Both the position numbers and the translations under genes were made by a program. A stretch of 64,000 bases of DNA from assembly GCF_964199755.1 (NCBI RefSeq), contig NC_133912.1:190570-254569 (forward strand), written 5' to 3'. This DNA comes from Larus michahellis. Lineage: Eukaryota. Shown piece after piece: positions 16,641-45,654 of the stretch (position 1 is its first letter; every line of letters starts with the position of its first letter). The notes below the pieces were generated by a model. It was given only the letters and a program-made list of their open reading frames with translations. It did no database searches and was not told the origin of the DNA.

Positions 16641-16699
16641 TTTTCTCCATGAGAGGTGTTCCAGCTTTCAGAGCATTTTTGTGGCCCTACTCTACACGC

Positions 16700-24393: not shown

Positions 24394-25308
24394 TCAGCCG
24401 GTAGGGGAGTGCGGAATGCCTGTAAGGTGCTTGACCCCCCAATCTTGAAAGAATTTTTGAAGGCGGAGGGAGATGTAAGCTGGGCCATTAGCCGTCTTAA
24501 CCATATGGGTGACACCTAGAGCAAAAGCTAGAGTAAAACGTTTGATAACAACATGAGCTTTTTCACCAGTAGGACAAGTGGCATGTATGGCTCCGGAGAA
24601 GGTATCTATAGAAACATGGATGTATTTAAGGCGTCCAAATTCGGAAAAGTGAGTTACATCAGTTTGCCACAGCTCAAGAGCAGTAAGGCCTCGCGGGTTA
24701 ATGCCAAAGGGTGATGAACTTGTGTATAACCGCTGGCAATCTGGACAGGCAGCAATGACATTTCTTGCCTGCCAGGGCATCAAGGAAAAGGTTTTTTGCA
24801 ATGCTTTTGCATTCTGATGGAAAAATGCATGACAGATTCGGGCTTGCTCTATTACCTGGGGCACTACTTGAGCTGTGAGAGTTAATGCATCAGCTCGTCC
24901 ATTGCCTTCCACTAGGGGCCCTGGAAGGGCGGTGTGAGCTCTGATGTGCATGATCAAATAAGGATGCTGTCTATTGTTCAGCAAATGCAAAAGCGTTGAC
25001 AGTAGAGTAAAAAGTAAGGGGTTGGAGACTTCCCTTAAACAAGCATTTTCTATGCGGGGTACAAGTCCCGCAACAGAGGCAGAATCAGTTATTATAGTGA
25101 CAGGAGCGTCCCATTTCTGGAACACTCGTACAGCAGCGGCGAGCTCTACGATTTGTGGGGACCCACTAGTTCGGCGTACATCAGAATCCCACAATTTACT
25201 CTGCGGGTCTTGCCTTCCTACGACTGAGCGGCTGGTTCGTCCAGAACCATCAGTAAAGACAGTCAAAGCTTGTAAAGGTACATGACTCACTTTCGGGGCT
25301 ACATACAA
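24394..25308 (-). CDS. ERV pol: RNase H plus integrase (zinc-finger and catalytic core)
   Basis: The RNase H reads FTDGSGRTS...IMHIRAHTALPGPLVEGNGRADALT. The IN HHCC finger is HAFFHQNAKAL...AACPDCQ. The IN core has D residues at WQTDVTHF and HVSIDTFSG. Confidence 0.8.
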   Translation of the reverse strand: MYVAPKVSHVPLQALTVFTDGSGRTSRSVVGRQDPQSKLWDSDVRRTSGSPQIVELAAAVRVFQKWDAPVTIITDSASVAGLVPRIENACLREVSNPLLFTLLSTLLHLLNNRQHPYLIMHIRAHTALPGPLVEGNGRADALTLTAQVVPQVIEQARICHAFFHQNAKALQKTFSLMPWQARNVIAACPDCQRLYTSSSPFGINPRGLTALELWQTDVTHFSEFGRLKYIHVSIDTFSGAIHATCPTGEKAHVVIKRFTLAFALGVTHMVKTANGPAYISLRLQKFFQDWGVKHLTGIPHSPTG

Positions 25309-25784: not shown

Positions 25785-26571
25785 CTATCTCAGGGAGATG
25801 ACTGGGGAGGGGAGGGGGCCAGGCGGGTGGTGGCAGGAGCGAAACGGCTCCGGCTCCGTCCTTCTCTGCTGACATTCTGACAATACACCGCAATACCCCG
25901 ATTCCGGCTGCGCACGTATAAGCGGTTGATAAGGGGGAACAGATGCGGTACCTGGCGCAAATGGAGAAGGGCTAAGAACGGAGGAGCGCGATAACAACTT
26001 TCGTCGCTGTTGCTGTAAAATGTCCTCCGCAATAGGAGCAGATGCAGGAATAGCTTTAATTGGGGTTAAAGGTGGATAGAAATCAGGTTCAGTCTCTGGA
26101 TTTATTGGACCAGGATCAAAGGGGTCCCCAGGATCATCCTCAGGGCTATTACAGAATAGGGTAGAGTGAACTTGAGTGCCTCCTTTCCCTTCGCCTTGTT
26201 CTGATCTCGGCAAGACTGGGCGACAATTGTCCGCTTGAAAATTAGGAGTTGCGGCGGTTGCCCGAAACGGAGCTTGCAGCTTATCTGATATCCTCCCGTT
26301 TCCGTAACATCTCTAGAATTTGCCGCCAAGGGGTTAATAATTCAGCAGCAACCTTGTCCGCCTTAGTGGCTCTGGCCCAAAGTTTAACCCCTCCGGCGTC
26401 CCACGTTTTTATACTAAAAATAGTGATTGCATCGACACCATCGCAATTAACGGACACCCATTTCAGTATCTTTTTTAAGGTCTGGAGGCTCGTATATACA
26501 TGATGTTTCCGCAAGAGTCCCTCCATTAGTCCTAGTACTGACTTTTCTTCCCAAGATATGTTACTCCCCAT
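25785..26571 (-). CDS. ERV gag remnants (MA N-terminus MGSNISWEEK... and a Pro-rich p10/late-domain-like fragment)
   Basis: 26281..26571 (-) starts MGSNIS (an ATG confirmed in the sequence; Gly2 suits myristoylation). 25785..26213 (-) is proline-rich with ...PPYQPL... The frames are broken, so it is non-functional. Confidence 0.45.
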
Positions 26572-26947
26572 AGCTCCCCACAGCTCACCTCTCTTGAAGA
26601 GATGCCTGAAGCCGGCTCCTGCTTCCTTTCAGCAGCACTTAAGTTCTGTGGGGCTTGACACCCGTCAAACCTCGTTAATCGCTCCGTCTCACACGGGGCA
26701 CCATTGGTGGCAATTAGGCACGGACTCCATTTGGTGCACAAACGAAAACGCTTTATTTTAGGCAGCAGCCTCTTTAAATACCCTCTGCTACAGAGCTAGC
26801 AATTTCCCACTGCTACCTCCTTATCATGAGATTACACAGCACATACCACACATATCACAGCCCATACATGCTGTAAACCAAGACAAGCTATTCATCTTTA
26901 GCAACCCGGCCGGCCTTCAGCGCTCTCTCCTTTTCTCCTTCGTCTCG

Positions 26948-27068
26948 TGGCCCAGGTGCTGTGTAGCTAGGGCTTGTTTACTTATCCCAGGGTTTGCCGC
27001 CAGGGAGAGCGAGGAGAACTCCAGGGCTCCTTCCGGGTGCTGTGTCCGCAGCTCCTTCGGCATCCACA
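26948..27068 (-). repeat. ERV 5' LTR (short)
   Basis: Direct repeat of 21959-22079. Confidence 0.6.
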
Positions 27069-27399
27069 GAACGGGGCTGGCTGCAGTGCTGCGCCTGCAA
27101 GTGAGCGCCTCCCACCCACAGGAACACCAGGAGCGACACAACACACTCCCTTTTACGTGGCACGGTGATTTATGATCAAAGCGCAACAAATTGCTGCTCC
27201 TGAGCACTGCAGCACAGTTTGCACGTGCAAACCTAGAGGTGCCCAGGCAGTTCATCGTGCTGGCCCCGTTCTTCTTCCAGATGCACCAGGAAGGGACGCC
27301 TCAGCCCTAACAAGAGGCAGCAGCCACCAGCTGTGCATTAACTGTGGGCAACATTCAGAGAGCCACCCCCACTCTTGTAGAAGCCGACACACGCACCGC

Positions 27400-28200
27400 G
27401 GGCATCTTACGGACGCGCATTTAGCCCAGAGTGCTTCCAGGGTGTTCGGGGACAGCAGTTCAGTGTTCAGCTACAGCAGAGCAGAGCGGGAAGAAAAGCA
27501 GAGCCAAGTACCAGCTGCTCATTCCCACGAAGGCCCCCGCCGCTCTCAGCGCGCACGGAGCGGCCACGGAGCACCCGGCCCCGACCGCCGCCAGCCACGC
27601 AGGGACGGAGCTCCGCTCCTCGCCCGCCCGCTCTGCGCCGGCCTCCCCGCCCCGAGGCGAAGGAGCCCGGGCAGGCAGGAGGGCGACGCGACAGCCGGTG
27701 GCACGGCGGCAGCGGCTCTCCCGCACCCCAGGGCGCCCCGCCCCGCCCCGCAGCCGGCCCGGCCCCTCCGGCACTCACCTTCTCCCACCAGCCACGGCCT
27801 ACGGGCCCCTCACACCGCGGCCCCTCCGCGCGCTCGGCTTCCTCCTACGGCGGCGCGCGAGGGACAAGCGCGGGAGCGGCGGCGGCGCGCGCCTGCGCGG
27901 GAGGGTGCGGGCCGCGCGCCGCCCTGAGGCGAGTCCTGCCGCCGGGGCGCGGAGGGAGAGAGCGGGGTGAGGGGCGGCCCTGGCGGGCTGTGCGGGAAGA
28001 AACCCAGAGCCAGGGGGCTCCGCAGCGGCTCCGTGCCCCCGCGGCCCCGATCCGGGGTGCCCGCAGCCGCCGCCATCCGTTTGTTTGTCGATATTTCTCC
28101 CGCCGGTCCCTCCCCTGCCCGGCTGCAGGGATGCTGGTGGGGGCCCCGTCGCCCGGCAGTGCCTCCGTGCTGCTCCTTCCTTCTCTGCGCGTTTATGTAC
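27400..28200. promoter_or_regulatory. Very GC-rich CpG island (many Sp1-type ccccgcccc boxes) with no assignable transcript
   Basis: Runs such as ccccgccccgccccgcagccggcccggcccc show dense CpG. It lies just beyond the polyA signal of the minus-strand coiled-coil gene and next to the ERV LTR. Its long ORFs are composition artefacts. Confidence 0.55.
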
Positions 28201-28589
28201 GTTAGATGCATTTATATATGATAGCTACATATTAAAAAAAAATAAAAATGGGGAGAAAAGGCTGGCTAGAAGCTCTCGTGGGCTGATGCCCCCCCCATCA
28301 GCGTGTGTGTCCCCCCATAAAAATAGGAATAAAACGTAGAAAATGGCTGCAGTGCGTTTCTAGGGGAGTCCCCACTCCCAAGGCCCTGGCCCAGAGCCCC
28401 CCAATTCCTCCCCGCCCCCCTCCCCGTGTCTATTACAAAAGTGGAAAGGTGAATACCAGAGATTTTGCAATAAGCGAGGTGCTAGATGTTAGATCTACAT
28501 TTTGGAACAGATACCCTGTTTCTGCAGGATCTGGTGTTAGGACTGGCAGAATATAGAAAAAACCCAACAAAAAATAGGGTCAAAGGCTT

Positions 28590-28595
28590 TTTATT
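28590..28595 (-). terminator. Polyadenylation signal AATAAA (minus strand) about 15 nt after the stop codon of the coiled-coil gene
   Basis: Plus-strand ctttttattag carries the tttatt at 28590-28595, which is AATAAA on the minus strand. The stop codon of the terminal exon is at 28610-28612. Confidence 0.5.
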
Positions 28596-28609
28596 AGTCA
28601 AATAAGAAA

Positions 28610-28758
28610 TCACTTTCTGGAGAGCAGCTGTCCCTGCCCAGCTGCCCGGCTCCTGGGTCTGTCCCGCGGGGGCCTTGGTGCGTGAGGGAGGTGGCAGTCG
28701 GACGAGTCGCTCTTGCTCTCCGCTGCCTTGTGCAGCCCGGGCTGGTGCTGTGCTGGCC
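28610..28758 (-). CDS. Coiled-coil gene: proposed terminal coding exon (...PAQHQPGLHKAAESKSDSSDCHLPHAPRPPRDRPRSRAAGQGQLLSRK stop)
   Basis: A strong acceptor ctctctcctgccacccctgctgcctgacag precedes GGCCAGCAC. It starts in phase 1, compatible with the 1-nt overhang of exon 28901-28982. An in-frame stop is followed by AATAAA. Confidence 0.45.
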
Positions 28759-28900
28759 CTGTCAGGCAGCAGGGGTGGCAGGAGAGAGCAGCGTGAGCTG
28801 GGGTGGGGGCAGTGGGGGGGACACGGGTGGGGAAAACCCAGCACCTCGTGGGTGCCCTGCCCTCCCCGCTGTCCCCTTCACACCCATGGGATCCTCTCCC

Positions 28901-28982
28901 CAAGCCAGCCCCGGCCGTACCCTCTTTGTCTGTGAGCACGGGACTGTCCAGCTGCTCCCTGGACATGCAGCCGTCCTTTGCC
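28901..28982 (-). CDS. Coiled-coil gene: penultimate exon candidate (CNVGDLLAKDGCMSREQLDSPVLTDKE)
   Basis: The acceptor is gcccgctctctcattcccag|TGCAAC and the donor is AAAGAGG|GTACGG. The join to the upstream exons (between 29779 and 28982) is not resolved. Confidence 0.4.
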
Positions 28983-29778
28983 AACAGGTCCCCCACGTTG
29001 CACTGGGAATGAGAGAGCGGGCTGGCTGAGCCACGGGGCCGAACTCGGCATCCCTTGGCAAGCCTCCCACGGCCAGCTCTCCCTGGGGAAAGTGAGGCAC
29101 AGATGCCCCCCCCGCCCCCGCAGAGGCTCAGCCTCAGTCGCCCCCGCCATATCCCTACCTTTGTCATCCCTACCTTGTTGGGGAGCAGGAGCGGCCGGAG
29201 GCGCCGGGGGAGCTGGAGGTCCTGGCGATGCTGCAGCGGGGTGGTGAGAGTGTGCCGGCCCCCGCAGCTCCGCGGCACGGTGGGGTACTTGACCTCGGGG
29301 GGCGGCTGCCTGTGGGACGGGGTACGCGGATGCTCAGTGCCCGGCACCGTGGCAGCCCGTGCTTCAGCCTGCTATACCAGGGAGGGGGCAGTGGCAGGTC
29401 CCTGCACCCCACGCCGAGGACAGCAGGAGGCAGGAGCTGGGCTGTCCCAGCTGCAGCACTTGATTTCAGCAACTTGTTTCAGAGAAGGAACCTGACCTCC
29501 CTAAGCCCGAGGTCAGGCTGAGACCAGACACAGCTCATCCCATGTGGCTTCAGCGCCCTTGAGACAGAGGCTTGGGCCAGATGGGCAGCGAGGGGGGGCT
29601 GTAAAGCCCCACAGAGGTGGGGTAAGCACAGCTGACCCTCTGCAGCACAGCTCTGCTCCCCTGCCCTGCCCAGGTCCGCCCGGACCCCTGTGCCCCCACC
29701 TGGGGAAGAGCTCTCCCTCGCCGGGGCCAGGCCACCCTGCACCCCAGTGGGACAGGGATGGGTCCCCGTGTCCCCTAC

Positions 29779-29880
29779 CTGTGGTTGTGCTGCTGTTCCT
29801 GCTCTGGCTTGAGAATGGGACGGGGGTGCTCGGCGAGGCGGGGGGACAGCAGCGGCAGGGATGGGATGGTCACGATGTGC
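29779..29880 (-). CDS. Coiled-coil gene exon (K)HIVTIPSLPLLSPRLAEHPRPILKPEQEQQHNH
   Basis: The acceptor is ctcctgccctccccag|GCACATCGTG and the donor is CCACAG|GTAGGG. Its entry phase matches the AA overhang of the preceding exon (AAG=K). Confidence 0.5.
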
Positions 29881-30302
29881 CTGGGGAGGGCAGGAGCCGT
29901 AGATGGGTGACGGGGCAGTGCCCTGAAACCCATGGGCTTGTAGCCCACGGCAACCCCTGCTCCCTGGGGAGGGCTCTGTGTCCCCCTGCTCCCAGGCAGT
30001 GCCGCGAGGGGGCTGGGCAGGGTCAGACCCCCCAGGCAGAGCCCCGAACCCCTGTGCCTGGCACGGCGGGGCACTGCCAGCACCCATCGCCCCCCCGTCC
30101 CGCCCACAGTGCCAGGTGCTACTCACGGGCCAGGCACCGACATGTCGAGGGGCCGGTCGCAGGAGAGGCAGTGGAAATGGGTCAGCAGCAGGCTGGAGTG
30201 GGGAGAAAAGGGCTGGGTGAGCTCCTGGGGGGGACACAGGCAGGCAGCTCGCAGGCAGCAGCGAGGTGTCCCTGAAGGCGCCGCTCTCCCCGTTGCACTC
30301 AC

Positions 30303-30421
30303 TTCTTAATGCCAGCTGCATCATCAGCCCCTGCCTGTGAGCCCTTCTGGAGCTGCTTCAGGTTGCTCTCCCAGTGCCCCTCCAGCTGCTTCTGCAGAGC
30401 CCCCAGCTCCTGGCGGTCCAG
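30303..30421 (-). CDS. Coiled-coil gene exon LDRQELGALQKQLEGHWESNLKQLQKGSQAGADDAAGIK(K)
   Basis: The acceptor is cacctgtccacag|CTGGAC and the donor is ATTAAGAA|GTGAGT. It has heptad-type spacing of L/Q/K. Confidence 0.7.
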
Positions 30422-30566
30422 CTGTGGACAGGTGCCCCCCCTCAGCCAGCTGCCCCAGGATGGGACATGGTGGTCCCCGGCTGGGACAGCTGGCAGAGGG
30501 ATCCTCGGCGGGATGCCAAGCCCTGAAGAAGCAAGTTTTGCGTGGCAGAGACGAGACACCCCTCAC

Positions 30567-30719
30567 CTTGGAGGCCACCTCTTCACGAAGCTGTTGCTGG
30601 ACCTTCTCCTGGCCCGTCTGCCGGCTCAGCATCTCCTCGAGCATCTCAGTCAGCCGCTCCATCCTTGTGTCGAACTCGCTGCGGTTGACTTTGCCAGCCA
30701 GGCTGGTTTTGTCTGCTTT
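30567..30719 (-). CDS. Coiled-coil gene exon KADKTSLAGKVNRSEFDTRMERLTEMLEEMLSRQTGQEKVQQQLREEVASK
   Basis: The acceptor is cctcttgctag|AAAGCAGAC and the donor is TCCAAG|GTGAGG. It runs phase 0 to 0. Confidence 0.75.
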
Positions 30720-31028
30720 CTAGCAAGAGGGAAGGGCAGGAGAGCGGTGGGGAAAGGACGAAGGTAGCCTAGGCAGGGCCAGCTCGTGCTGGGAGGAGAG
30801 GGAGAAGTGGCTACGTGGCCCTGCTTGCCCCATCACCCCCATGGGGCTGGTGCCAGCAGCCAAAGGGTCCCGTGGGGAGACAGAAGGACCTGGCGAGGGA
30901 GCCGCAGCCAGTCTGGAAATCTTCCCTCCCCCCGGCAGGTTCTGCCACCAAGCAGCCAAGGGACAAGGGGTGATTGTCACCCTGCCTGGGACCCCCTTGG
31001 CTGGTGCTGGGGACCCTCGAGGCCATAC

Positions 31029-31103
31029 CACATCGAGTGCCAGCATCAGGTCATTCTTGTCCGCTTTGCCCTTCACCAGCTTCTCCAGGGACTGGAACAG
31101 AGC
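31029..31103 (-). CDS. Coiled-coil gene exon ALFQSLEKLVKGKADKNDLMLALDV
   Basis: The acceptor is tttctgtgttggaag|GCTCTG and the donor is GATGTG|GTATGG. An inverted degenerate copy of this exon lies at 37235-37300. Confidence 0.7.
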
Positions 31104-31281
31104 CTTCCAACACAGAAAGCACCCCATGATGCCACGGCAGCGTCGGAGCTGCCTCCCGGCCAGCTCAGCACCCCCCATCTCCCACCCCCCTTAAAAACCT
31201 GCGGGAAAGGGACAAATCCCTGGTGGTGCCCAGGCTCTGCCTGGAGGATGCTCTGACCCCGTGGGGCTTTCAGCCACCCAC

Positions 31282-31407
31282 CTTGGTATCTTGCTGCTGC
31301 CGCTGACTGTCACGCAGGAGGTTCCCCACGACGGAGCTGAGCTTTTCATAGCTCCCTTGCACCTGCACAAGGGTGGCCTGGACGCGCTTCGGCACCTCCT
31401 CATCCTG
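31282..31407 (-). CDS. Coiled-coil gene exon QDEEVPKRVQATLVQVQGSYEKLSSVVGNLLRDSQRQQQDTK
   Basis: The acceptor is cttgtcatcttcctccctgcag|CAGGATGAG and the donor is ACCAAG|GTGGGT. Confidence 0.75.
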
Positions 31408-31674
31408 CTGCAGGGAGGAAGATGACAAGGCGGTGCTGTGCAAGGGGGGACTGGCTGCCCCGTGGGGACAGAGCCAGGTTACTTGGCCGCTGGCCAAAGG
31501 CTCTCAGTGCCAGCAGGACATTTGCACCAAGGCTTTCATTTCCTTCCGTGTTGCTGACGTGTACAAGCCAATGTGGGGAGCAGCGAGGGGCTCCCCCATG
31601 TTACAGCAAAGCACGACCAGCCAGGGGAGTCCCGGCAGCCCCCTCCCAAGCCCCCCATGCCAGCACCTCCCTAC

Positions 31675-31875
31675 CTGGCTCTGCCTCGGCAGCTGCCTCA
31701 GCACCTCGCCCACCGCCCGCCGGGACATTAGGGAGTCCACCACCTCCTGGAGCTTCTCGTAGCGCTGCAGGAGCTGCCCCACCTGCGCTCCGGTGTCCCC
31801 ACAGCAGGCAGGGCATGCTGCCTGCGCCTCTGCCTGCTCCTGCCCTGCACTCTCCGTCGCCTTCAGCTTGTCCTG
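31675..31875 (-). CDS. Coiled-coil gene exon QDKLKATESAGQEQAEAQAACPACCGDTGAQVGQLLQRYEKLQEVVDSLMSRRAVGEVLRQLPRQSQ
   Basis: The acceptor is ttccttctccccttcctgcag|CAGGACAAG and the donor is AGCCAG|GTAGGG. Confidence 0.75.
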
Positions 31876-32045
31876 CTGCAGGAAGGGGAGAAGGAATGGG
31901 CTCTCAGATGGAACGGATGCAGCCAACAAGCCAAGGTGCTGTGGAGGCTTGATGGCTGCAGCCGGCCAGGGGCCGTGGCCGGGAACCCTGCCAGGACCCC
32001 CCCACCCAGCCGACGGGCAGTGGGAGCACTCCCCCTAGACCTCAC

Positions 32046-32192
32046 CTGAGCCTGCATCTGCTTGGCCACCTGTGTCACCAGCTGCTTCAGCGTGGCCTCG
32101 GTCATGTCCTGCTGCTCTCCCAGCTCCTTCAGCTCACGCTTTATCTTCTCTAATTCCAGCTCCTTCAGCCCCAACACCTCTCGCTTTAACTC
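32046..32192 (-). CDS. Coiled-coil gene exon ELKREVLGLKELELEKIKRELKELGEQQDMTEATLKQLVTQVAKQMQAQ
   Basis: The acceptor is gtccatgctgcag|GAGTTAAAG and the donor is GCTCAG|GTGAGG. It is a textbook heptad coiled coil. Confidence 0.75.
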
Positions 32193-32581
32193 CTGCAGCA
32201 TGGACCTGGCCAGCAAGATGGGTGCACCGGCAGGCTTAGCCGCATCAGGGCCACTCAGGGGGCTGTCCCTCGCCCCCCAAACTGGGCTGGTCCCAGCCAC
32301 TGGGCTCCCTTGCAGCCCCATGGGGTAGCAAACCCTCTCCCGTCCTTTTACCCCAGTTGCAGGGCGATCTGGTCGCTGCCATCTGCTCTCCAGTCCGCTC
32401 CGGCCACCCACAACTTTGCAAGGGCATCCTCCAGCTGCCTGATCTGGGAACGGCGGTGGTGGCAGAGTCAGGGCATGGCACCCCGTGCTGTCCCTTTGTG
32501 GGGGGGCCCTTTGGCTGCCCCTCCCTCTCCCAATCCCCCCTGGCATCCCTGCAGCCCCCTCGGGGACTGCCACCGGCTCAC

Positions 32582-32661
32582 CTTCTCCTTCACTTCCTGC
32601 AGCTCGCTGGCGAGGCTCTGCAGGGAGGACACCTGACCCCGGAGGGCGATGCTGTTGTCAT
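32582..32661 (-). CDS. Coiled-coil gene exon (x)DNSIALRGQVSSLQSLASELQEVKEK
   Basis: The acceptor is catgtccctctag|ATGACAAC and the donor is GAGAAG|GTGAGC. Confidence 0.7.
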
Positions 32662-32879
32662 CTAGAGGGACATGGTCCAAGGAGACATGCTGTCAGTGAG
32701 GGGGTCTCGCCCTTGGGGCCAGCCTCTGAGCACGATGAGCCCCCAGCCCAGGGTGTTCCCACGCCAAACACCCCCCCACCAGCCCCCTCAGGGTTCCTAC
32801 CTCCCTCCGGGGAGAGCAGGTGCGTCTGCTCACGCACGGCGTGGTCTGACTTGGTGGCTTCCAGGTGGGTGTGGAATAA

Positions 32880-33900
32880 TTACTAAATTGGCCAAGAATA
32901 CAAAAATACAGCATTGTTCACACATTAAGGAAAGTCATAAAATCAAGAGGCTTCTGAGGTAGAATACAGCCGCAGCTAGCACACGAAGAATGCAACATCT
33001 GTGATTCCCTGTACAAGGTTGTTTGCGAAACTACATGAGGGATGGAACGGAACACGCTTGTTCCGTGGCCTTCCCTTGTGACGAATAGCAGATATGGGGA
33101 CGAGATGGTACTACGGAACTGATAAGCGGCCTACACGCTACCCGAGCCAACATTTCGTCAAATGTTGATGAAATGCTGTCCTTTTGTGCGAACTTTGCTC
33201 ACCACAATGTACCAAAACACACCTCCATCCCGGAGGCTATCCGCCCCCGAGGTGTGAACACTCCTCCTTGAATACATTAATCATAATAAAAGTACGTATG
33301 ACTAAAGTCACTCAAACTCCACTTTGAAGATAAAAAAATAATATAAAAATAGCCCAAGAGAGAGGGGATGTCAGGGAAGACACCATCGCAAAGAATTCCA
33401 CCGCCGATTTCCGGGATCAGTCGACGGGCTGAGCCTCTCTTCCCCCCCATAGGGACGCCTTTGGGTAAGACTTCGATTACACCGAGCGCTTTCTCGGGGA
33501 CTTAGAAATTTCTCTAGAGAATCTCTACCCTACATTTATAGCCAGGCTGTATCGTTTATAATTTTGTCGTGCGTTTGTATACTTAGCAATATCTTTATTT
33601 GCACGTGCTTTGCAGACAGTGTATTTATCACCGGCAATCCTAAAGAACCTGTATATCTGTTGTTTAAATAAACTGCACTGTTTAAGTAGCTAGCCGTTTC
33701 GCTTTCTCACTGAACGCGACCAAAACTTGAGAGAGGCCGTGCTAGTTCAGGAGCACGACTAGACTGAAGGTGCAGTCCACTATTAGTGTATCCAAATCGT
33801 AATAGTTTAATACATATTAAACGCGATTGGACTGATAGTGCTGAATTGGGCATCACTCAGAATTTAAACTTAGCCGCACCTAGCCTCCCACCTCGGTGAG
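32880..33900. other. About 1 kb compositional outlier inside an intron: CpG observed/expected about 1, GC about 45%, no ORF of at least 60 aa in any frame, and no repeat or TE signature
   Basis: I counted 16 CpG in 33001-33300 against about 15 expected. AT-neutral CR1 or intergenic stretches elsewhere in the window give about 2 per 300 bp. The segment is rich in cg-containing words (acgcgattgg, cagtcgacgggc, gcgaccaaaac, ccgccgatttccggg). Confidence 0.5.
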
Positions 33901-34905
33901 GAGTGTTAGAACGCAAGGGGGTTTATCTTCTGCCAAAACCACTTGGCCCCGTTTCACGCAACAGTGGGCCACCTGCTTCTTCGGGTGGCCAAGCTGCCCA
34001 GACTGGCCGAGAGCCTCCACCATCTCCATGCCATGGCCAGAGGCACTGCTGAAGGCTGAGGACCCCCAGGGCATTGCTGGCTCTTGCAAATGGGACATGC
34101 CGGGAGATCCTGGCTGCACCCCTGGGGTGGCTGTCCCGGTGCCAGGGGACTCTGGCTTCTCTCCTGGGCTGGTGGTCTTGATGCCTGGGAATGCTGGCTG
34201 CATGCCCGGAGTGGTGATTTGGGTGCTGGAGGGTTCTGCCTGCATCACTGGGGTAGTGCTCTGACCAACAGGGGACCCTGGCTGCTTTCCTGGGCTGGTG
34301 GTCTTGATGCGAGGGAATGCTGGCTGCGTGCCCGGGGTGGTGATTTGGGTGCTGGAGGGTCCTGGCTGCATCCCTGGGGTGGTGCTCGGAGTGCCAGGGG
34401 ACCCTGGCTGCTTTCCTGGGCTGGTGGTCTTGATGCCAGGGAATGCTGGCTGCATGCCCGGGGTGGTGATTTGGGTGCCGGGGTATCCTGGCTCCATCCC
34501 CTGTGTGGTGCTCTGAGCGCCAGGGGACCCTGGCTGCATGCTGGGGGTTGTGGCGCTGGCATCAGAAATGCTCTTCCCATCTGAAGGAGCGCCTGCCGCC
34601 TTCTCAGGGCTCACTGGTGCTCTGTGTGTCCCTGCTTGCGTCTCCTCGGAGCCAGGCTGTGTCCCTGGAGCCCCCTTGCTTGTGCTGGGCTCAGGTTGTG
34701 CCCCTGGTTCCTCCGTCCCCGGCACGGAGCTTGCCCCGTGCTGGGTGTCCACGGCCGCCTGGGGGGACTCTGTGGGGGAAGAAAGGCTCCCACTGCCCTC
34801 CTGGGAAGAGGAGGCCAAGGGGAGCAGGGTTACAGGCAGCCATGCAGCGGCAAGGACAGAGCCCAGGCCCCCCCGCCATGTCCCCACTGCCTGTCTCCAA
34901 GGCAC
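33900..34905 (-). CDS. Coiled-coil gene: giant Pro/Thr/Gln/Gly-rich exon built from about 3.3 tandem 126-bp (42 aa) coding repeats (TTPGMQPAFPGIKTTSPGKQPGSPGTPSTTPGMQPGPSSTQI)
   Basis: A 341-aa stop-free minus frame covers 33880-34905. The nucleotide repeat at 34075-34530 has period 126 and stays in frame. The exact splice boundaries are not determined. Confidence 0.45.
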
Positions 34906-36167
34906 CGCCTCACGGGGCCAAACTCAAGGACACCACGAGAGCCCCAAGGCAAAGGCTGCCCCCCCTGCACAGAGCCCCGCGTCCCACGGCTACAGCCTCC
35001 TGCAACCTCCCCAGCCCCCTTAGTGCTTTGCTGGCCTCTGGGCCGGCAGCGTCTGAGCAGTCGAGCCTGGGGAGCGGCAAACCCTCCCTGACTCCCCGGG
35101 CCACGGCAGCGAGGCCTTTTGCTCTCCAGCAGGGGGATTCAGTGCTCCAGGCCTGCTGCCCAGACCCGCTTCCCAGCCCAAGGGGCTGCGCTGGTGTTTC
35201 AGGAGCAGCAGCCCCCGGCGGGATTTGGAAACCATCTCACAGTGCCAAATGCTGGGATCTGCCCCCTCCTCCTCCCGCTTCTGCTTCGCTGCCCGCCAGG
35301 CGAGCCACCCCCCAGCACCTCCCAGCCCACCATGCTGCGCACCTCCTCCGGGACTGGGCTGAGTCTCCGCATTTCCTTCAGGCTTTTCTGGGGAAGGAAG
35401 GGATCAAGGGCTCAGCCCGGCCACGTAGCTGGCAGGGACGGCACCCTCGGGGACAGGGCCCCCCAGCATCACTGCCCAGCACCCACCACCCATGGACCAT
35501 GCCCCAGCACAGGAGGGACGGTCCCCCCAGGGGAGCTGGGGACACAGCTACCTCCTGTCTCAGTGCAGGATCCAGGACCCCCCGCGGCCATACTTCACCA
35601 CGACACTTCTTGTGAGGGGGGCCTGGCAGCTGGCTGGCGGTGTCCTGGAGTTTCCCCTGGAGCAGGGAGAGGACAGGGACACCAGTCTGGCTGTGGGAGC
35701 GGATGTCAAAGGAGCATCCACACCTTGCCTTGGGCACAAGGGAGAGGGGCGCTGGGAAGGGCTGTGCCCGGGGGGTGTGGCTGTGTTGTCCGGGGCAGAG
35801 CTTTATCTCCCTCCTTCCCAGCTCCCACGTGTCGTGCCTTTTTTGATGGCTCTTTGGTTGCAAAGTGCCTGAGCATCCCTTTGGGTGATGCCCACAGTTC
35901 CTTCTAGCCCCAGCCTGAGCTGCAGGCAGCGGTGCCCGTTTCTGCCCTCCCTGGGGCTGTGCTGGCGGGCAGAGGGTGGGGAGCTCTGGGTGGGGGTGGC
36001 TGAGCTGCCCTGCTGCCCTCCTTGGGACATCCTTCCCACTCTGCCCTCCTGGTGCCCTTCCTGCTGGGGGACAGGGAGGGCTGATGGCCGCGGGGCAGGG
36101 GCTGGGGTGGTGATGGGGAGAGGGGCAGGGAGGGGGCGAGGGCCCAGCTCCCTCTCGGGGCACTGGC

Positions 36168-36272
36168 GGCAGCTCACCAAGCCGAGTGCCTCCTGCATCG
36201 CCCACAGCTCCTCTTCCAGGTGGGACTGCGCCTCCTTCATCGCGCCCATCTCCTGGAGGAACTCCTCGGAGA
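36168..36272 (-). CDS. Coiled-coil gene exon ATALSEEFLQEMGAMKEAQSHLEEELWAMQEALGL
   Basis: The acceptor is cccctttctgccag|GCCACAGCT and the donor is GGCTTG|GTGAGC. It runs phase 0 to 0 and follows exon 36564-37118 in frame. Confidence 0.65.
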
Positions 36273-36563
36273 GAGCTGTGGCCTGGCAGAAAGGGGTGGT
36301 GGGGGTGAGCCCCAGAAGAGGGTCCCTGGGGACCAGGACCATTGCCGCCGCTGTGGCCTGCCCAGAGCCGGGGGGCAGTGCCAGGCTGGCAGGGCAGCGC
36401 GGGCAGCACATCCCATCCATCACATCTTCAAGAGCTGAGATGGGGCAGCAGCTCCCCAGAGACCCCCACCCCAGCCCCGGGGGGGCAGCACAACGGCGGC
36501 GTGGACCCCGGAGGACGGGGTGTTGTGCAGGGGAGCACCCAGGGGATGGGCAAGAGCCTCTAC

Positions 36564-37118
36564 CTTGGAGATGCCGCTCTCGTTGGCTTTGATCTTGTCC
36601 TTCATCCACCCCACGTCGGTGGCCACGGAGGCCAGCTGGGGGCTGCTCGTGCTCTCCTGGAGCAAGTCCTTCCCAGGCAGCCGCTCCCCCGGTTCCTGGG
36701 GCTGCTGCCCCCTGTCCTGGGCCCTGTCCCCCTCCTTCTCCAGCACAGGGGGTGCCTCTGCAGGCTGGTCCCCCTCCCAGAGCAGGGTCAGGCTGTCCCC
36801 CTGCTTCTGGGCGGGCAGGTCCCGCAGGCCCAGGTGCCCGAGCATGGCGAGCAGCAGGCTGCGCAACGCCACGAAGTTGACTGCCCCGAGCTCGGGCGTC
36901 CCGATGGCCTCGTCCAGCAGCTGGTACAGGCTGAGCTGGGCCATGGCTGCTGCCCTGCCCAAAGCCATGGAGGCACCTGAGGGGGATGGGAACCTTTCTG
37001 CCTGAGGGGGGCCCGGGATGACTGGAAGGGATGGGCAGTTGAGGCTTTCCTCTTCCTCTTCCTCCTCTTCTTCCTCCTCCTCCTCTGCTGGCTCCTCGCA
37101 GCAGAGTGATCGCACCAG
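36564..37118 (-). CDS. Coiled-coil gene 5'-proximal coding exon: acidic E14 run plus a conserved-looking globular segment (GTPELGAVNFVALRSLLLAMLGHLGLRDLP) plus a Q/E-rich linker
   Basis: The acceptor is tgtcccttgtcacccgtccag|CTGGTG and the donor is TCCAAG|GTAGAG. There is a 185-codon open frame. The true initiator and any further upstream exons are not identified. Confidence 0.6.
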
Positions 37119-37169
37119 CTGGACGGGTGACAAGGGACAATGCAGTGTCCCCTGTTGCTAGGCGATGCC

Positions 37170-37385
37170 ACACCCCCCGCAGCCACCTACCAAGGGGGAC
37201 GCTGCATTGTCCATTGTCACCCGTCCACCGCGGAGTGGACGCCCTAATGGCGAAGGTGGAAGCAGACAAGAACAACCTGATGCTGGGACTCGATGTGGTG
37301 GGACCAGCCCCATAGGGGCGATGGGGCGAGCAGGGCCACGTAGCCACTTCTCCCTCTCCTCCCAACACAAGAATGTTTCTTCATC
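37170..37385 (+). repeat. Inverted partial duplicate of the exon-31029-31103 region (exon plus distal intron, with an internal deletion of about 185 bp), abutting a short palindrome at the exon-A acceptor
   Basis: 37241-37300 is ggcgaaggtggaagcagacaagaacaacctgatgctgggactcgatgtggt. The reverse complement of 31029-31085 is gtgaagggcaaagcggacaagaatgacctgatgctggcactcgatgtggt. 37300-37385 matches the reverse complement of 30781-30860. 37201-37228 (ctgcattgtccattgtcacccgtcca) mirrors the minus strand at 37150-37120. Confidence 0.6.
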
Positions 37386-37730
37386 TCTGTGCCACGCTGA
37401 CAGCTGCTCTTTGGGACCTAGCCATTCTGCACACCAGGAATGCTCCCTTCTTCCTAATTTGTCCCTTTTTCCAGTAAGTTCATGAGGAAATAATTTCATG
37501 TGTCCTGGGGAGAATTAACCCTGTCCCCGCCAGAACCAGGACATTATCCACGCCTTGTTCCGTACCATCTATGCCATGCCCAGATCTTACAGATTCCAAT
37601 GAATTGCCACCACTTTCCCCTGTCATGTATATATCTACATATATATTCATGCAGATATAATGCCCTTAGTTTATGGGCCATCCCTCCAAAGTGTTCGTTG
37701 AGTTCATTTCATCCATGGCTCTGGGCTCCA

Positions 37731-38159
37731 TTAGAACAGTCTCTTGGGCTGTTTGATTGCAGCGCATGTCTCACATTCATGGATGACCTGTGCAATAGTG
37801 TCCATGGTCAAGGCCACCCCTCGGTCACGAGCCCATCTATATGTCGCATCTCTTCCTTCATGGCCTGAGGTGTCATGGGCCCACCGAGCTATGAAGAGTT
37901 CACCCCTATGTTGCCAGTCCAGATCCAGCTGAGCCACTTCAATCCTAGCAGCCCGATCCACCTGCTGCTTGTTCTGATGTTCCTCCGTGGCCCGATTGTT
38001 TGGTACATGGGCATCTACGTGGCGTACTTTCACAACCAGATTCTCTATCCAGGCGGCAATATCTTGCCATAGGTCAGCAGCCCAGATGGGTTTGCCTCTG
38101 TGCTGCCAGTTGCCCTGCTTCTGCTGCTGTAGCCACCCCCACAGAGCATTTGCCACCAT
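37731..38159 (-). mobile_element. Solitary ERV pol fragment (RNase H C-terminus into the integrase HHCC finger), a different family from the 21959-27068 provirus
   Basis: ...RATEEHQNKQQVDRAARI...WAHDTSGHEGRDATYRWARDRG...IAQVIHECETCAAIKQP. It is truncated by the CR1 insertion at 38175. Confidence 0.6.
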
Positions 38160-38174
38160 CCATGAGTCAGCCTG

Positions 38175-39089
38175 GTGGCAGAGCTGCGAGAGGAAGTCGA
38201 CAGGTTAAGGAGCATTAGGGAGGCTGAAGAAGACACAGACTGGTGGAGCCAGGCTCTGCCCTCCTTGAAACAGGAGCAGGAGCACCTATCAGATAGTAAC
38301 CGGGATCCAGGGGCCCCTGTATCCTGCCCCTGCCAGGCAGAAGGTAGAAGCCTAAATGCAAAGAGTGAATGGAGACAAATTCATGGTCGGGGCAGCAGGC
38401 GAACTCCCTCCTTGCCCACCTTGTCCCCCACCCCGGTACCTCTGAACAACAGATATGAGGTTCTGGTTGAGGAAGGCCAGTCAAATGAGGATGTGGATGA
38501 TGGGCAAACCACACCAGAGATGTCTCCACAGTCAGAATGGTGTACCGCCCTTATCTCAACCACAACCACAAGGAAGAAAAGAAGGGTTATAGTCGTTGGT
38601 GACTCCTTCCTGAGGAGAACAGAGGGTCCAATATGCCGGGTAGACCCTCCTCATAGAGAAGTCTGCTGTCTTCCTGGAGCCCGGGTGAAGGACATCACCA
38701 GGAAACTTCCTCGCTTGATACAGTCCTCAGGCTATTCCCCATTACTGATCTTCCTTGTAGGTGGAGAGGAAGCTGCAACTCATAGACCAAGAGCAATCAA
38801 AGGGGACTTCAGGGCCTTGGGAAGGTTGGTGAGGGAATCTGGGACACCGGTTATTTTTTCCTCACTCCTTCCAGTTGCAGGCAGTGACATTGGAAGAAAC
38901 AGACGGATCCAGTCTATTAATACATGGCTCTGTGGCTGGTGTCACCGCCACAATTTCTTTTTTGTTGACAATGGGATGGCCTACACGGCACTGGGCTTTC
39001 TGGCATCACCTGGGAGACACCTTTCTCAAAGGGGGAAGAGGGTCTTTGCTCAAGAGATTGTCGGTCTGATCAACAGGGCTTTAAACTAG
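38175..39089 (+). CDS. CR1 ORF1 (coiled-coil plus GDSL/SGNH esterase-like domain)
   Basis: It is a 304-aa intact frame. VIVVGDSFLRR and the downstream GGEE/DNG blocks are characteristic of CR1-clade ORF1 esterase. Confidence 0.7.
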   Translation: MAELREEVDRLRSIREAEEDTDWWSQALPSLKQEQEHLSDSNRDPGAPVSCPCQAEGRSLNAKSEWRQIHGRGSRRTPSLPTLSPTPVPLNNRYEVLVEEGQSNEDVDDGQTTPEMSPQSEWCTALISTTTTRKKRRVIVVGDSFLRRTEGPICRVDPPHREVCCLPGARVKDITRKLPRLIQSSGYSPLLIFLVGGEEAATHRPRAIKGDFRALGRLVRESGTPVIFSSLLPVAGSDIGRNRRIQSINTWLCGWCHRHNFFFVDNGMAYTALGFLASPGRHLSQRGKRVFAQEIVGLINRALN

Positions 39090-39486
39090 ATGTGAAGGGG
39101 GAGGGGGATGGTAATATCAGGCTTGTCTGTGACAAGCTGTGGGATAACACGTCAGGGTTAGAGGGACAGGGCGGTAGGAAGGGCCTTTGACCTGTTGCCC
39201 GGAGGCATGCTGGGGACACTGCATCATAGTCAAAGTCTTACAGAGACGAGCCAGGGGCTTCTGAGTTTGTTGGAGTCAACAGGGAAACAGCCGTGAAACA
39301 GCTCAAGGTGATCTCCTCTAAGAAGGTAACACAGGCAACAGCCCAGCTGAAGTGCCTCTTCACAAACGCACACAACATGGGTAACAAACAGGAGGAGCTG
39401 GAAACTACCATGCCGCTGGAAAGCTATGACCATTAGGTCATTAGGCCGTTATTGAAACCTAGTGGGACAAATCCTATGACTGGAGT

Positions 39487-42117
39487 GTGGCTATCAATGG
39501 CTACAAGCTGTTTGGAAGGGACAGGGGAGGAAGGAGGGGCAGAGGTGTTGCCCTCTCTCTTACAGAATGGATAGAGTGTGAAGAGATGTCCCTAAAGAAC
39601 AGCCAAGAGGAAGTCAAAAGCTTATGGGTAGGAATTAGAGACCGAGGCAACAAGGGGAACCTGGTGGTTGGTGTCTACTACAGGCTGCCTGATCAAGGGG
39701 AACTTGCTGATGAAGCCTTCTTCCTCCAGCTACAGGAGGCATTGCGCTCGAAGGCTCTCGTCCTACTGGGGGATTTCAGCCACCCCGGCATCTGCTGGAA
39801 AAGGAACATGGTGAGCTGTAGACAATCCAGGAGGTTCCTGGAGTGCCTCGACGATAACTTCCTAAGACAGGCAATAGACAGCTCTGCCCGAGGGGATGCC
39901 ATACCGGACCTGACAGTCACCAATGCGAGTGAGCTCATTGGGGATGTCAAGATTGGAGGCAGGCTGGTGAGCAGTGACCACGCACTGGTGGAGTTCACAG
40001 TCCTAAGGGATACGTGTCAGACAAGGAGCGTAGTCAGGACCTTGAATTTTAGGAAAGCAAACCTCCGGATCGTCATGGAGTTAGTCAATAGGACCCCCTG
40101 GGAAACGGTTCTCACGGACAAGGGGGCAGAAGAGAGCTGGCAGATCTTCAAGGACACTTTCCATAGAGCACAAGGGCTCTCGATGCCCAGGTGTAAGAAA
40201 TCAAGCAAGAAAGGGAAGAGACCAGCATGGCTGAGTTGGGACCTGCTGGTCAAATTAAAAGGCAAGAAGGAAGTGCAGATGCAGTTCAAGCAGGATCAGG
40301 TGTCCTGGGAAGAGTATAGGGATGCTGCCCGGTTACATAGGGTTGAGGTCAGGAAGGCCAAGGCGTGGCCGGAGCTGAACTTGGCAAGGGATGCTAAGAA
40401 TAACAAGAAGGGCTTCTACAGGTCAGTCAACCAGAAAAGGAAGGTTAAAGAAAGCGTGCCCTCCCTGATGACTGAGAATGGCAAACTGGTAACAAGAGAT
40501 GAGGAGAAGGCTGAGGTTCTGAACAATTTTTTTGCCTCAGTCTTCACTGCCAGCCTCTCTCCTCACACCTCCCAAGTGAAAGGACTTCAAGATGGGGAGT
40601 TGGGGTCAAAGTCCCTCCCACTGTAAGTGAAGACAAAGTTTGTGATCACCTGAGGAACGTGAACGTACACAAGTCCATGGGGCCTGATGCACCCCAGAGT
40701 CCTGAGGGAATTGGCTGATGAAGTTGCCGAGACACTGTCCATGATATTGGAAAAGTCATGGCAGTCAGGTGAAGTCCCTGGTGACTGGCAGAAGGGAAAC
40801 ATTACACCCATTTTTAAAAAGGGTAGAAAGGAGGACCCCGGAACTACCGCCCTGTCATCCTCACCTCTGTGCCTGGGCACATCACAGCACAGACACTCCT
40901 AGAATCTATGCTAAGGCACATGGAGGACAGGGAGGTGATTCGAGACAGCCAGCATGGCTTCACCAGGGGCAAGTCCTGCCTGACCAACCTGGTGGCTTTC
41001 TCCAATGGAGTGACTGCATCAGTGGACAAGGGAAGAGCAACGGATATCCTTTGTCTGGACTTCTGCAAGGCCTTTGACACTGTCCTGCATGACATCCTGG
41101 TCTCCAAGCTGATAAAACATGGGTTTGATGGACTGACAATTCAGTGGATGAAGAACTGGCTTCACGGCCGCACCCAAGGAGTGGCTGTCAATGGGTCCAT
41201 GTCCAAGTGGAGGCCAGTGACAAGTGGAGTCCCCCAAGGATCAGTACTGGGTCCGGTATTCTTTAACATCTTCGTCAGCAACATGGACAGTGGCGTAGAG
41301 TGCACCCTCAGCAAGTTTGCCAACGACACCAAGCTGTGTGGGGCGGCTGACAGGCTGGAGGGAAGGGATGCCATCCAGAGGGACCTTGACAGGCTGGAGA
41401 GGTGGCCAATACCAACCTCATGAAGTTCAACAAGACCAAGTGCAAGGTCCTCCATCTGGGTCGGGGCAATCCCAAGCACCGATAAAGGCTGGGCAGTGAC
41501 TGGCTTGAGAGCAGCCCTGAAGAAAAGGACTTGGGGGTGCTGGTAGATGAGAGGCTCAACATGAGCCGTCAGTGTGCACTAACAGCCCAGAAAGCCAATC
41601 ATCTCCTGGGCTGCATCAGGAGAAGCCTGGCCAGCAGGTCGAGGCAGGTGATTCTCCCCCTCTACTCCACTCTCGTGAGACCCCACCTGGAGCACTGCGT
41701 CCAGTTCTGGAGCCCCTACTACAAGAAAGATACGGACGTGCTGGAACGCGTCCAGCGAAGGGCCACGAGGATGATCAGAGGGCTGGAGCACCTCTCCTAT
41801 GAGGACAGAGTGAGTGAGTTGGGGTTGTTCAGTCTGGAGAAAAGAAGGCTCCGAGGAGACCTTCTAGTGGCCTACCGGTGTCTTAAGGGGGCCTACAAGA
41901 ATGCTGGTGAGGGACTTTTTAGGATGTCGGGTAACAGTAGGACTAGAGGGAATGGATGAAAGCTAGAGATGGGACTATTCAGACTGGACGTTAGGAAGTT
42001 CTTCACCCTGAGGGTGGTGAGACACTGGAACAGGTTACCCAGAGGGGTGGTGAAAGCCCCATCCCTGGAAGTTTTTAAGGCCAGGCTGGATGGGGCTCTG
42101 AGCAACCTAATCTAGTG
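39487..42117 (+). pseudogene. CR1 ORF2 (endonuclease plus reverse transcriptase), disrupted
   Basis: The reading frame changes at about 40626, 40880, 41423 and 41470 (a stop tga after ...LERWPIPTS, then taa at about 41472). Otherwise it has high similarity to the other CR1 RT copies in the window. Confidence 0.75.
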
Positions 42118-43900: not shown

Positions 43901-45654
43901 CAGAGCCACCTTTAATTTCCCTTTCCCTACCTGTCATTATTGCCTCCAGTTTTCTGCTCTAATGAGCCCCTAGGGAGGCTTTGTTGGTAATGGTCCTCAG
44001 TGGGACCCATTAACACTCCAAGAAACTTTGGAGTTTACATCTGAGTTTGTCATCTTGAGAGGTTTCTTCAGCTTCCTCTCAGTGTCTGAGGTTCATGGAC
44101 TCCACCTCAGACCCACCCGAGGGGTCATTAAAAGTCCTTGGGCTGCTCCTCTGCTGCTGAGCTGGGCCAGGCTCTTGGGACAAAGGTGGGTGATGTGAAG
44201 CGGGCAGCAGGGCTGGGGGCACTGCCTGCAGGCACCGAGGATGAGACCATCAATGCAGAGGGAGCGTGAAGGCAGTTGTGACTGGGAGGAGAGCTGAGAG
44301 CTCACTGTGGGAGAAGGATTCCCAGCCCTCTGCACGGTAAGTGTCATGCTGCAGGGCAATGCCAGTGCCGATCCTGAAGGGTTCTCATAAAGCTGTCGTA
44401 GCCCACAGCCTGTGGGATCTTTCTCTGGTGTAGAGGAGGAGAAGGGTGTGCTGCAGAGCAGGGCTTCCCTGCAGCACCGTCAGAGGGACAGGACACGATG
44501 GCTGCCTTCTCCTGGGGATGGTTGCAGGGGCATGAAGGCGGGTGTGCAGCCAGGGGTGCCCAGGGCTGTCCTTCAGAGCAGGGTCCCTGTGCTTCAGAGG
44601 AACTCTGCCTCCTGCCAGTGCCAACTCTAACCCTGCCCAGTGAGCTTCTGCCCTCAAGGACGTGGGATCCAGGGAAGCAGCTGCCTCATCCGTGGCCAGA
44701 GCTGCAGCAGAAGGGACTCTCCTGAGCACCCTCTGTCCCTCCCAGGCCTTGTCTCCCTTTGGCAGAAGCATCGGGGCATTTCTCCTTGCTTCTCCACCCA
44801 TCCCTGCTGCTGCTGTTGCTCTTGTTTTCAGTCTCTCTGGGGTGGGGGCTTCAGCAGCCGCTCAGCAACTGACTCTGCAGGTCCTGCCATGCAGATGTGT
44901 CCCTGGTGCCCAAGGCCTCTTCTAACCTCTGGGTCTCTAGGCAATGCAGTCCATGGGGTGGGGATAACGTTAACTCTCCACAAAGGGCACCCCATCTTCT
45001 GGGCATCCAAAAGCTGACAGCTCTTCCCTGGGGAGGGGAATTTGGAGATCTGCACTTTGGAACTGGACTCCTCTGCTCTCCATGGGATCATCCTCCAGAC
45101 AAAAGCGGTGCTGGCAAAAAGCAGCCGAGAGCAGGACGGATGGAGAGACCAGCTCTCCTCCTTCTGCACTAAGGGTCTGTCCTACTCCCTCCCAGGACTC
45201 TCACAATAGCACTCATAGGGTAGCAAAAATGCGGATTTCTACCTTCAAACATGACTCCTCAAGTGGGACAGGGGTAACAGGAGCAAAATAAACAAAACAA
45301 CCCCCCCCAGCTCTGTTCTGCAGCCAGGGGAACTGGGAGTGACGGTGGTCAAAAGCTCTTTTATATCAGGGATAGATTTAACCTGCGATCACTCCTGGCT
45401 CCTCTCTGCCTCTTGCTCCACAGCATGACTGAGTCCTCTGGAGCCCACAGCAGAGTCCCCTGCTCCCCATTGCACCCTCAGCCAGCACAAACCAAGCATC
45501 ACACCAGGATCTGCACAAACGCCTTCCTGGACGGACGGAGGTCATTTGGGGGGCCTTAATGTGACCAATGCAACAGGTTCTACTCGGACGCGTCTGTCCT
45601 AACTCTTCACTGTCTTTTCCTCCTTGGACAGGCCACCATGTGCAGAGGGAACAA

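Follow-up and report, generated by a model that had tools for sequence, protein, structure and literature searches.

Can a gene copy still be in use when one of its coding exons has been split by foreign DNA, or is it lost? This question is raised by a multi-exon gene on the minus strand of a 64-kb stretch of genomic DNA, which was analyzed at its full length and is referred to below as the window. By its sequence, the locus represents a member copy of the QRICH2 (glutamine-rich protein 2) family of birds, and it carries a 1094-bp insertion resembling a long terminal repeat (LTR) in its repeat-encoding exon 5. The gene is, with good probability, a recently disrupted QRICH2 co-orthologue, that is, an inactivated or polymorphic null duplicate, located outside the canonical position of the family.

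The interruption is apparent from a comparison of the window with related copies. In the window, 1.1 kb separates the codons for ...GHPKKQVAH from those for LEATKSDH..., and the Larus protein reads ...GQLGHPKEQVVHLEATKSDH... unbroken across the insertion site. The insertion is missing from all five comparison copies, namely those of godwit, plover (two copies), ibis, and gull, the last being compared at the protein level only. At the DNA level, an empty site with a single CCCAC was found in Limosa (L001, 4621-4625), in both Pluvialis copies (L003, 8599/8603 and 20764/20768), and in the ibis (L002). The inserted sequence has a GC content of 44.5% compared to ∼65% in the surrounding gene, and contains neither internal direct repeats nor an open reading frame (ORF) of more than 74 amino acids. 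With solo LTRs that disrupt coding exons it shares TG...CA termini, a perfect 5-bp target-site duplication, the presence of a single unit, a foreign base composition, and an empty site in relatives. It differs from them in that it was not matched to a named endogenous retrovirus (ERV) family and that neither the window nor any of the loci L001-L003 contains a second copy. The ends, the duplication, the GC content, and the empty sites are hallmarks of a solo LTR, and the insertion is probably the solo LTR of an ERV. On the plus strand of the window, the element has a TATA motif at 473 followed by AATAAA at 798 (motif matches only), and this order weakly suggests that it lies antisense to the gene. 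Two ERV pol fragments are also present on the minus strand of the window, one at 24394-25308 with RNase H, an integrase zinc finger, and an integrase core, and one at 37731-38000 with an integrase H2C2 finger. No sequence is common to the exon 5 insertion and these two fragments.

If the insertion is not spliced, the reading frame ends after 27 foreign codons at a stop at codon 509 (TAG, 33882-33880), and the read-through product of 508 amino acids is devoid of both the coiled coil (the helical region) and DUF4795. An uninterrupted ORF through DUF4795 is absent from the locus as it stands and is obtained only after in silico removal of the element. In human QRICH2, truncations and nonsense mutations upstream of the DUF4795 region are null alleles, and loss of QRICH2 function leads to malformed sperm flagella in man and mouse (PMC6347614). 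Since its frame stops in the element, before the coiled coil and DUF4795, the copy is most likely inactivated.

To establish the gene model, the minus strand was read from 38000 to 28000 and translated in all frames, and open segments bounded by AG and GT were chained. The resulting model comprises 18 GT-AG coding exons between 36944 and 28610 (Table 1), with all 17 introns being GT-AG and the phases continuous throughout. Once the insertion is removed, the coding sequence starting at the conserved ATG (36944) has 3048 nt and encodes 1015 amino acids with a terminal stop only; the same is true for the 3072 nt counted from the ATG at 36968. Only the region of 28.6-37 kb was matched by tblastn with bird homologues, and the matches break at the modelled exon boundaries, giving one copy of the gene in the window. 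These boundaries, together with a DUF4795 match far beyond chance (E=6.9e-57), bear out the proposal of the first-pass annotation, which had been made from the sequence alone, that the exons belong to one gene and one family. Its ten exons from 32661 to 29779 were reproduced exactly with their AG acceptors, GT donors, and continuous phase, and the peptides that it quoted are present in the translations. The heptad-rich coding block formed by these exons stands as well, with a size of 1174 nt (∼391 amino acids) instead of the ∼370 amino acids given there. A direct junction from 29779 to 28982 had been left tentative and is now replaced by a path through three added exons (29779 to 29309-29174, then 29002-28921 and 28758-28610). 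The stop codon (TGA, 28612-28610) does lie close to an AATAAA signal, at a spacing of 14 rather than 15 nt. For exon 16, the acceptor ggcag/CCG was rejected on phase, and cacag/GCAG fits. The Larus and Bubo models take the alternative donors after 35549 and 35343, with an effect on protein length of no more than 15 and 4 residues, respectively. At its C-terminus, the Pluvialis relative P0013 ends in ...AQLLFRK, like the ...GQLLSRK of the window protein. A scan of 27000-39000 against Rfam gave no match.

In its ancestral form, exon 5 extends from 34800 to 32801 with 900 coding nt, and it is now split by the insertion. Tandem Repeats Finder reports a period of 126 bp (42 amino acids) in 3.4 copies with 86% match and a sub-period of 42 bp (14 amino acids) in 10.5 copies; on writing out the array, eleven 14-residue units of the TTPGMQPGSPGTQx type are seen. 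The exon had previously been described as a 1-kb exon of 42-residue repeats, of which the period is retained, whereas the coding part, starting at 34800, is ∼0.9 kb and is split.

At its 5' end, the gene had been assigned an N-terminal exon with a run of 14 Glu, an assignment that is not upheld. The purine run would encode 13 consecutive Glu and is in frame with exon 1, yet no in-frame ATG precedes it. Across Limosa, the two Pluvialis copies, and ibis, conservation is limited to the ATG at 36944, while the ATG at 36968 is GTG in all four of them, and all full-length homologues begin with MA(P/S/A)LSL. Moreover, indels that are not multiples of three separate the purine run from the ATG in relatives, so that the frame is not kept. 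Because there is no upstream ATG, only the ATG at 36944 is conserved, and the indels are not multiples of three, the run is probably part of the 5' untranslated region (an untranslated leader) or promoter-proximal. Of the inverted repeat at 37120-37227, one arm is also kept in the copies of Limosa and Pluvialis; the repeat may mark where a duplicated or inverted unit ends, or else be a promoter element that forms a hairpin.

A Pfam search of the spliced product returned DUF4795 (PF16043) as the sole family, with 192.6 bits (cutoff 34.8 bits) over profile positions 2-203 of 208, and neither SMC nor any other family was matched. When the C-terminal 513 amino acids were used as a query, 93 database relatives were returned, 87 of which contain DUF4795 and most of which are named glutamine-rich protein 2 or glutamine-rich protein 2-like. 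The best full-length relative is that of the ibis Theristicus (61% identity), and the closest shorebird relatives (Larus michahellis LOC141751110 and Limosa lapponica) show 75-76% protein identity over partial overlaps; no relative near 100% identity was present in the protein collection searched, which therefore does not include the gene of the source species itself. In an alignment of 15 sequences ranging from rotifer and amphioxus to fish, frog, lizards, and birds, the N-terminal motif LxxLLDxAIGTPxxGAVNFxxLxxLL is present from rotifer to birds and is kept in the window as MAQLSLYQLLDEAIGTPELGAVNFVALRSLLLAMLGHL (LSLYQLLDEAIGTPELGAVNFVALRSLL). Residues 1-128 of the homologue P0002 match the window with 58% identity in tblastn. 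The window protein also keeps KADK...DVKADK, LDRxEL, and DDAAGIK, and contains the C-terminal cysteine motifs CxSCDRP and PRxCGGxHT as HFHCLSCDRPL and VPRSCGGRHT, with C, S, C, and D being invariant among the 15 sequences. The distal motif LGxDGxIYKGR is not preserved: the window reads LLAKDGCMSREQ and its tail is short, and the motif is degenerate in a Pluvialis copy, too. The layout of low-complexity repeats in one large exon followed by a long helical region is found in the window gene as well.

A structure was modelled for Pluvialis P0013, the closest admissible relative (75% identical, 187-residue DUF4795 core), in place of the window protein. The model shows helices that are 77, 42, and 21 residues long, with a predicted local distance difference test (pLDDT) score of up to 98, after which the CxSC motif lies at a small hairpin and the tail is disordered. 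The long helices of this model support the description of the window protein as a large coiled-coil protein. No match in the PDB was obtained by Foldseek with the P0013 model or by phmmer with the C-terminal 513 amino acids. The earlier guess of a QRICH2/DUF4795-type protein, with SMC-like families as the other candidates for a Pfam match, agrees with the DUF4795 score, the names of the relatives, and the location of the ibis relative at PRPSAP1/UBALD2.

The window gene shares 75-78% identity and the same exon structure with the shorebird QRICH2-like models (Larus P0024, Pluvialis P0013, Limosa P0028), along with three shared derived features: a short TGQEKVQQQL where others have GQEQGWHQVQRQL, the sequence K(S/N)xLLTHFHC, and the C-terminus QLL(S/F)RK. 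The difference is the insertion, which is found in none of the three. Pluvialis apricaria L003 (CM030023.1, 5.22 Mb) contains at least two DUF4795 genes and a third 5' fragment within 23 kb in mixed orientation, in what appears to be a local cluster of QRICH2-like genes, some of them decaying. Several annotated copies are also found in owls, pigeons, cuckoos, and passerines. As to the individual models, P0024 of the gull LOC141751110 is out of frame from exon 10 on, with a tail that matches frame 0 of window 31400-31278, and the locus may be frameshifted or mis-modelled; compared to the window, 1 bp of exon 1 is deleted in one of the Pluvialis L003 copies.

Between the window and the three loci, exon identity (0.80-0.84) is about the same as intron identity (0.78-0.84), and pairwise omega is 0.5-1.0. 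Exon indels relative to these relatives are mostly multiples of three, and in-frame stops occur in no copy. Because of these four observations, the avian QRICH2 family is judged to be coding but weakly constrained, and rate alone cannot tell if the window copy is dead. The pN/pS of 0.66 on the window branch fits a pseudogene and a fast-evolving gene alike and does not separate the two. Weak constraint is common for sperm proteins.

The surroundings of the gene bear on its orthology. The ibis gene lies between a PRPSAP1-type gene and UBALD2, whereas no PRPSAP1 or UBALD2 coding sequence was found in the 27 kb upstream and 28 kb downstream of the gene that make up the rest of the window. Synteny thus places the ibis relative at the QRICH2 locus, and the window gene is outside the canonical PRPSAP1-QRICH2-UBALD2 position. 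Its neighbours are three olfactory-receptor ORFs, ORFs of CR1-type long interspersed nuclear elements (LINEs), and ERV RNase H/integrase fragments, and it sits inside an olfactory-receptor cluster. There are three signs of local rearrangement. A segment of 425 bp (27999-28423), inverted relative to the gene, has 72.6% identity to the stretch right behind the UBALD2 stop in the ibis (L002 18528-18977); a QRICH2-like fragment at 37248-37371 aligns in reverse to Limosa L001 7320-7592 (exon 11 and the adjoining intron); and the inverted repeat at 37120-37227 is the third. A tail-to-tail segmental duplicate including the 3' end of UBALD2 was rejected because the matching 425 bp are inverted relative to the gene. 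A neighbor-joining tree built on the DUF4795 core puts the window protein together with Limosa and Pluvialis, and the owl and duck copies also cluster by lineage. Since the neighbourhood is non-canonical and rearranged, the relatives are multi-copy, and the tree groups by lineage, the window gene is read as one QRICH2 co-orthologue of a shorebird-like lineage, not as the positional orthologue.

Table 1. Coordinates of the QRICH2-like gene, the exon 5 insertion, and neighbouring features in the window.
Feature	Position	Strand	Remarks
LTR-like insertion, 1094 bp	32870-33963	-	gene sense TGTTGCG...TTCCACA, TG...CA ends
Target-site duplication, second copy (CCCAC)	32865-32869	-	perfect 5-bp match to 33968-33964
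Exon 1, coding part	36564-36944	-	starts at conserved ATG (MAQLSLYQLLDEAIGTPELGAVNFVALRSLL...); upstream ATG at 36968 specific to window copy
Exon 2	36178-36282	-	ATALSEEFLQEMGAMKEAQSHLEEELWAMQEALGL
Exon 3	35594-35656	-	GKLQDTASQLPGPPHKKCRGE; alternative in-frame donor after 35549
Exon 4	35331-35387	-	KSLKEMRRLSPVPEEVRSM; alternative in-frame donor after 35343
Exon 5, 5' part	33964-34800	-	P/G/S/T/Q-rich repeat region; first CCCAC copy at 33968-33964
Tandem repeat array in exon 5	34097-34537	-	42-bp units, 126-bp super-period
Exon 5, 3' part	32801-32864	-	LEATKSDHAVREQTHLLSPEG; aligns with Larus P0024 residues 265-290
Exons 6-15	29779-32661	-	helical coiled-coil region and DUF4795 core (KADK...DVKADK, LDRxEL, DDAAGIK, CLSCDRP); 32661-32582, 32443-32352, 32205-32046, 31875-31675, 31407-31282, 31103-31029, 30719-30567, 30421-30303, 30192-30127, 29880-29779
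Exon 16	29174-29309	-	conserved YPTVPRSCGGRHT, motif YPxVPRxCGGxHT; placed by tblastn (P0001, P0002) and alignment
Exon 17	28921-29002	-	CNVGDLLAKDGCMSREQLDSPVLTDKE; degenerate LGxDGxIYKGR motif
Exon 18, last coding	28610-28758	-	stop TGA 28612-28610; protein end ...GQLLSRK
Poly(A) signal AATAAA	28590-28595	-	14 nt past stop codon, read from sequence
GAG/GAA purine run (Glu run)	37047-37097	-	13 consecutive Glu if translated
Inverted repeat	37120-37227	.	33-nt arms, 94% complementary, 42-nt spacer, just upstream of GA run
Inverted QRICH2-like fragment	37248-37371	+	exon-11-like with adjoining intron, head-to-head with promoter, encodes ...KVEADKNNLMLGLD
Olfactory-receptor ORFs	8871-9731, 14379-15341, 45568-46569	+	Pfam 7tm_4, E 1e-34 to 3e-50
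CR1-type LINE pieces	38175-41423 (+), 10527-11492 (+), 16656-17531 (+), 53637-54776 (-), 58008-58787 (+)

Among the neighbouring features, the match of the ORF at 8871-9731 to the 7tm_4 profile begins only at position 33, and this ORF appears to be damaged at its N-terminus. The CR1 element at 38175-41423 is nearly complete, having an endonuclease and a reverse transcriptase besides an ORF1 with weak similarity to esterases. The region of 26000-28000 is GC-rich (59% GC) and includes an ORF of 251 amino acids on the plus strand (27172-27927) that matched no Pfam family; a CpG island and the first exon of some gene are both conceivable here.

Several points weigh against considering the window gene a disrupted duplicate. 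Apart from the insertion, the frame of 1015 codons is fully intact, so that constraint acted on it until recently, and the copy might be in use today. The search for another intact QRICH2 copy covered 64 kb of the genome, where none was seen; a canonical shorebird QRICH2 is not among the recovered sequences, and the label of a paralogue draws on the missing synteny and on the copy number in other species. In addition, the element was classed by its structure, without a match to a named ERV family. It is accordingly conceivable, albeit unlikely, that the gene is still functional, with the element being spliced out as a new intron or exon 5 being otherwise processed to give a full-length or nearly full-length QRICH2-like protein. 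The remaining frame is intact over 18 exons, and in-frame cryptic splice sites do exist: 28 stop-free GT...AG combinations span the element, one of which (donor AAGCAG/gtggcc at 33973, acceptor ...accaag/TCAGAC at 32849) would cost 8 residues only. Skipping of exons 5 and 6 would likewise keep the frame, as exon 4 ends and exon 7 starts in phase 0. However, all of the spanning pairs are weak. Every candidate donor is without the +4A/+5G consensus, the pyrimidine tracts of the candidate acceptors reach just 47-65%, and AATAAA signals in the gene sense within the element could terminate transcripts early. The best-looking acceptor inside the element (tttag/TAATTATTCC) was rejected, since it opens with an in-frame TAA.

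A different objection concerns the copy rather than its fate, namely that the window gene is the single canonical QRICH2 of the species in a rearranged neighbourhood, in which case the insertion would be a null of the only copy. All recovered shorebird sequences (Larus, Limosa, Pluvialis) fall into one clade with the window gene and none beside the canonical ibis and raptor genes, and the 425-bp segment at 27999-28423 matches sequence adjoining the 3' end of UBALD2 in the ibis. This explanation nevertheless appears quite improbable, given that no PRPSAP1 or UBALD2 coding exon was found on either side of the gene within the window, that the 425-bp match is inverted, and that the promoter borders on an inverted, exon-11-like piece from another copy. 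Furthermore, the two to three tandem copies of Pluvialis lie 3.9 Mb from the position of the ibis gene (chromosome-scale contigs of 14.85 and 14.86 Mb, homology being assumed from their near-equal size). Even the family assignment has a competitor, as DUF4795 is common to QRICH2 and C16orf96 (PMC11006759), and the gene could encode a C16orf96-type DUF4795 protein or a generic SMC-like coiled-coil protein instead. The window gene is set apart from C16orf96 by names, synteny, and whole-gene DNA alignment, not by direct sequence comparison: no relative is named C16orf96, the closest relative with its neighbours kept sits in the QRICH2 synteny block, and the intron-containing DNA aligns over its full length with QRICH2 of the ibis at 77-79%. 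As no SMC or other Pfam family was matched either, we give this possibility hardly any weight, and the reading of the locus as a recently disrupted QRICH2 co-orthologue is retained.

Human QRICH2 has a length of 1663 amino acids, whereas the window protein would have ∼1015. The PRPSAP1/UBALD2 neighbourhood is that of human QRICH2 as well; the ibis relative resembles the human gene in this respect, and the window copy differs from it, as it does in its coding exon broken by an insertion. The human protein comprises a conserved N-terminal motif, repeats encoded by one large exon, an SMC_N-like helical region, and DUF4795 (PMC6347614). The same order of repeat region, long helical region, and DUF4795 near the C-terminus is found in the window protein, which also keeps the N-terminal motif as well as CxSCDRP and PRxCGGxHT of QRICH2. 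Differences are found in the C-terminal tail, which is short in the window and has a degenerate LGxDGxIYKGR, and in the repeats, which are 14-residue units of the TTPGMQPGSPGTQ type and not glutenin-like Gln-rich repeats, the latter being reported as mammal-specific (PMC11006759). Mammalian QRICH2 is a testis protein needed for the assembly of the sperm flagellum and stabilizes AKAP3, TSSK4, and ROPN1 against ubiquitin-dependent degradation (PMC6347614, PMC11006759); it also interacts with alpha-tubulin (PMC11006759). By analogy to this mammalian work, the product of an intact bird copy would be expected to serve spermatids as a long helical scaffold that stabilizes flagellar proteins and interacts with tubulin.

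The history of the locus can be outlined as follows. The ancestral gene would have had 18 coding exons for ∼1015 amino acids, its protein starting with LxxLLDxAIGTPxxGAVNF and continuing with P/G/S/T/Q-rich 14-residue repeats and ∼400 residues of helices that end in the DUF4795 core, with the CxSCDRP and PRxCGGxHT motifs also being part of it. A 1094-bp LTR-like element would then have inserted into the repeat exon, generating the 5-bp target duplication. Straight read-through transcripts would stop 27 codons into the element, and the inserted copy would give at best a truncated N-terminal protein that is presumably functionally lost. The loss of this copy would be tolerated if other copies exist.

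No description of an avian QRICH2 expansion was found in the literature searched. A tentative proposal, which we hold to be possible rather than probable, is that avian QRICH2 is not a single-copy housekeeping gene of sperm but a birth-and-death family that expanded separately in shorebirds, owls, pigeons, cuckoos, and passerines, and whose copies evolve near-neutrally or under positive selection (omega 0.5-1), move into regions rich in olfactory-receptor genes and transposons, and are lost via events of the LTR type seen here.

For annotation, the locus should be labelled as a QRICH2-like gene that is probably a pseudogene or null allele, with exon 5 split by an LTR and the Glu run non-coding. 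The gene is of a known kind and opens no new mechanism, its notable extra being the LTR-like insertion in the repeat exon. It provides a small, clean case of a retroelement striking a coding exon of a reproductive gene copy, and adds one more data point for QRICH2 being multi-copy and fast-evolving in birds. The birth-and-death pattern, if true, would fit sperm competition.

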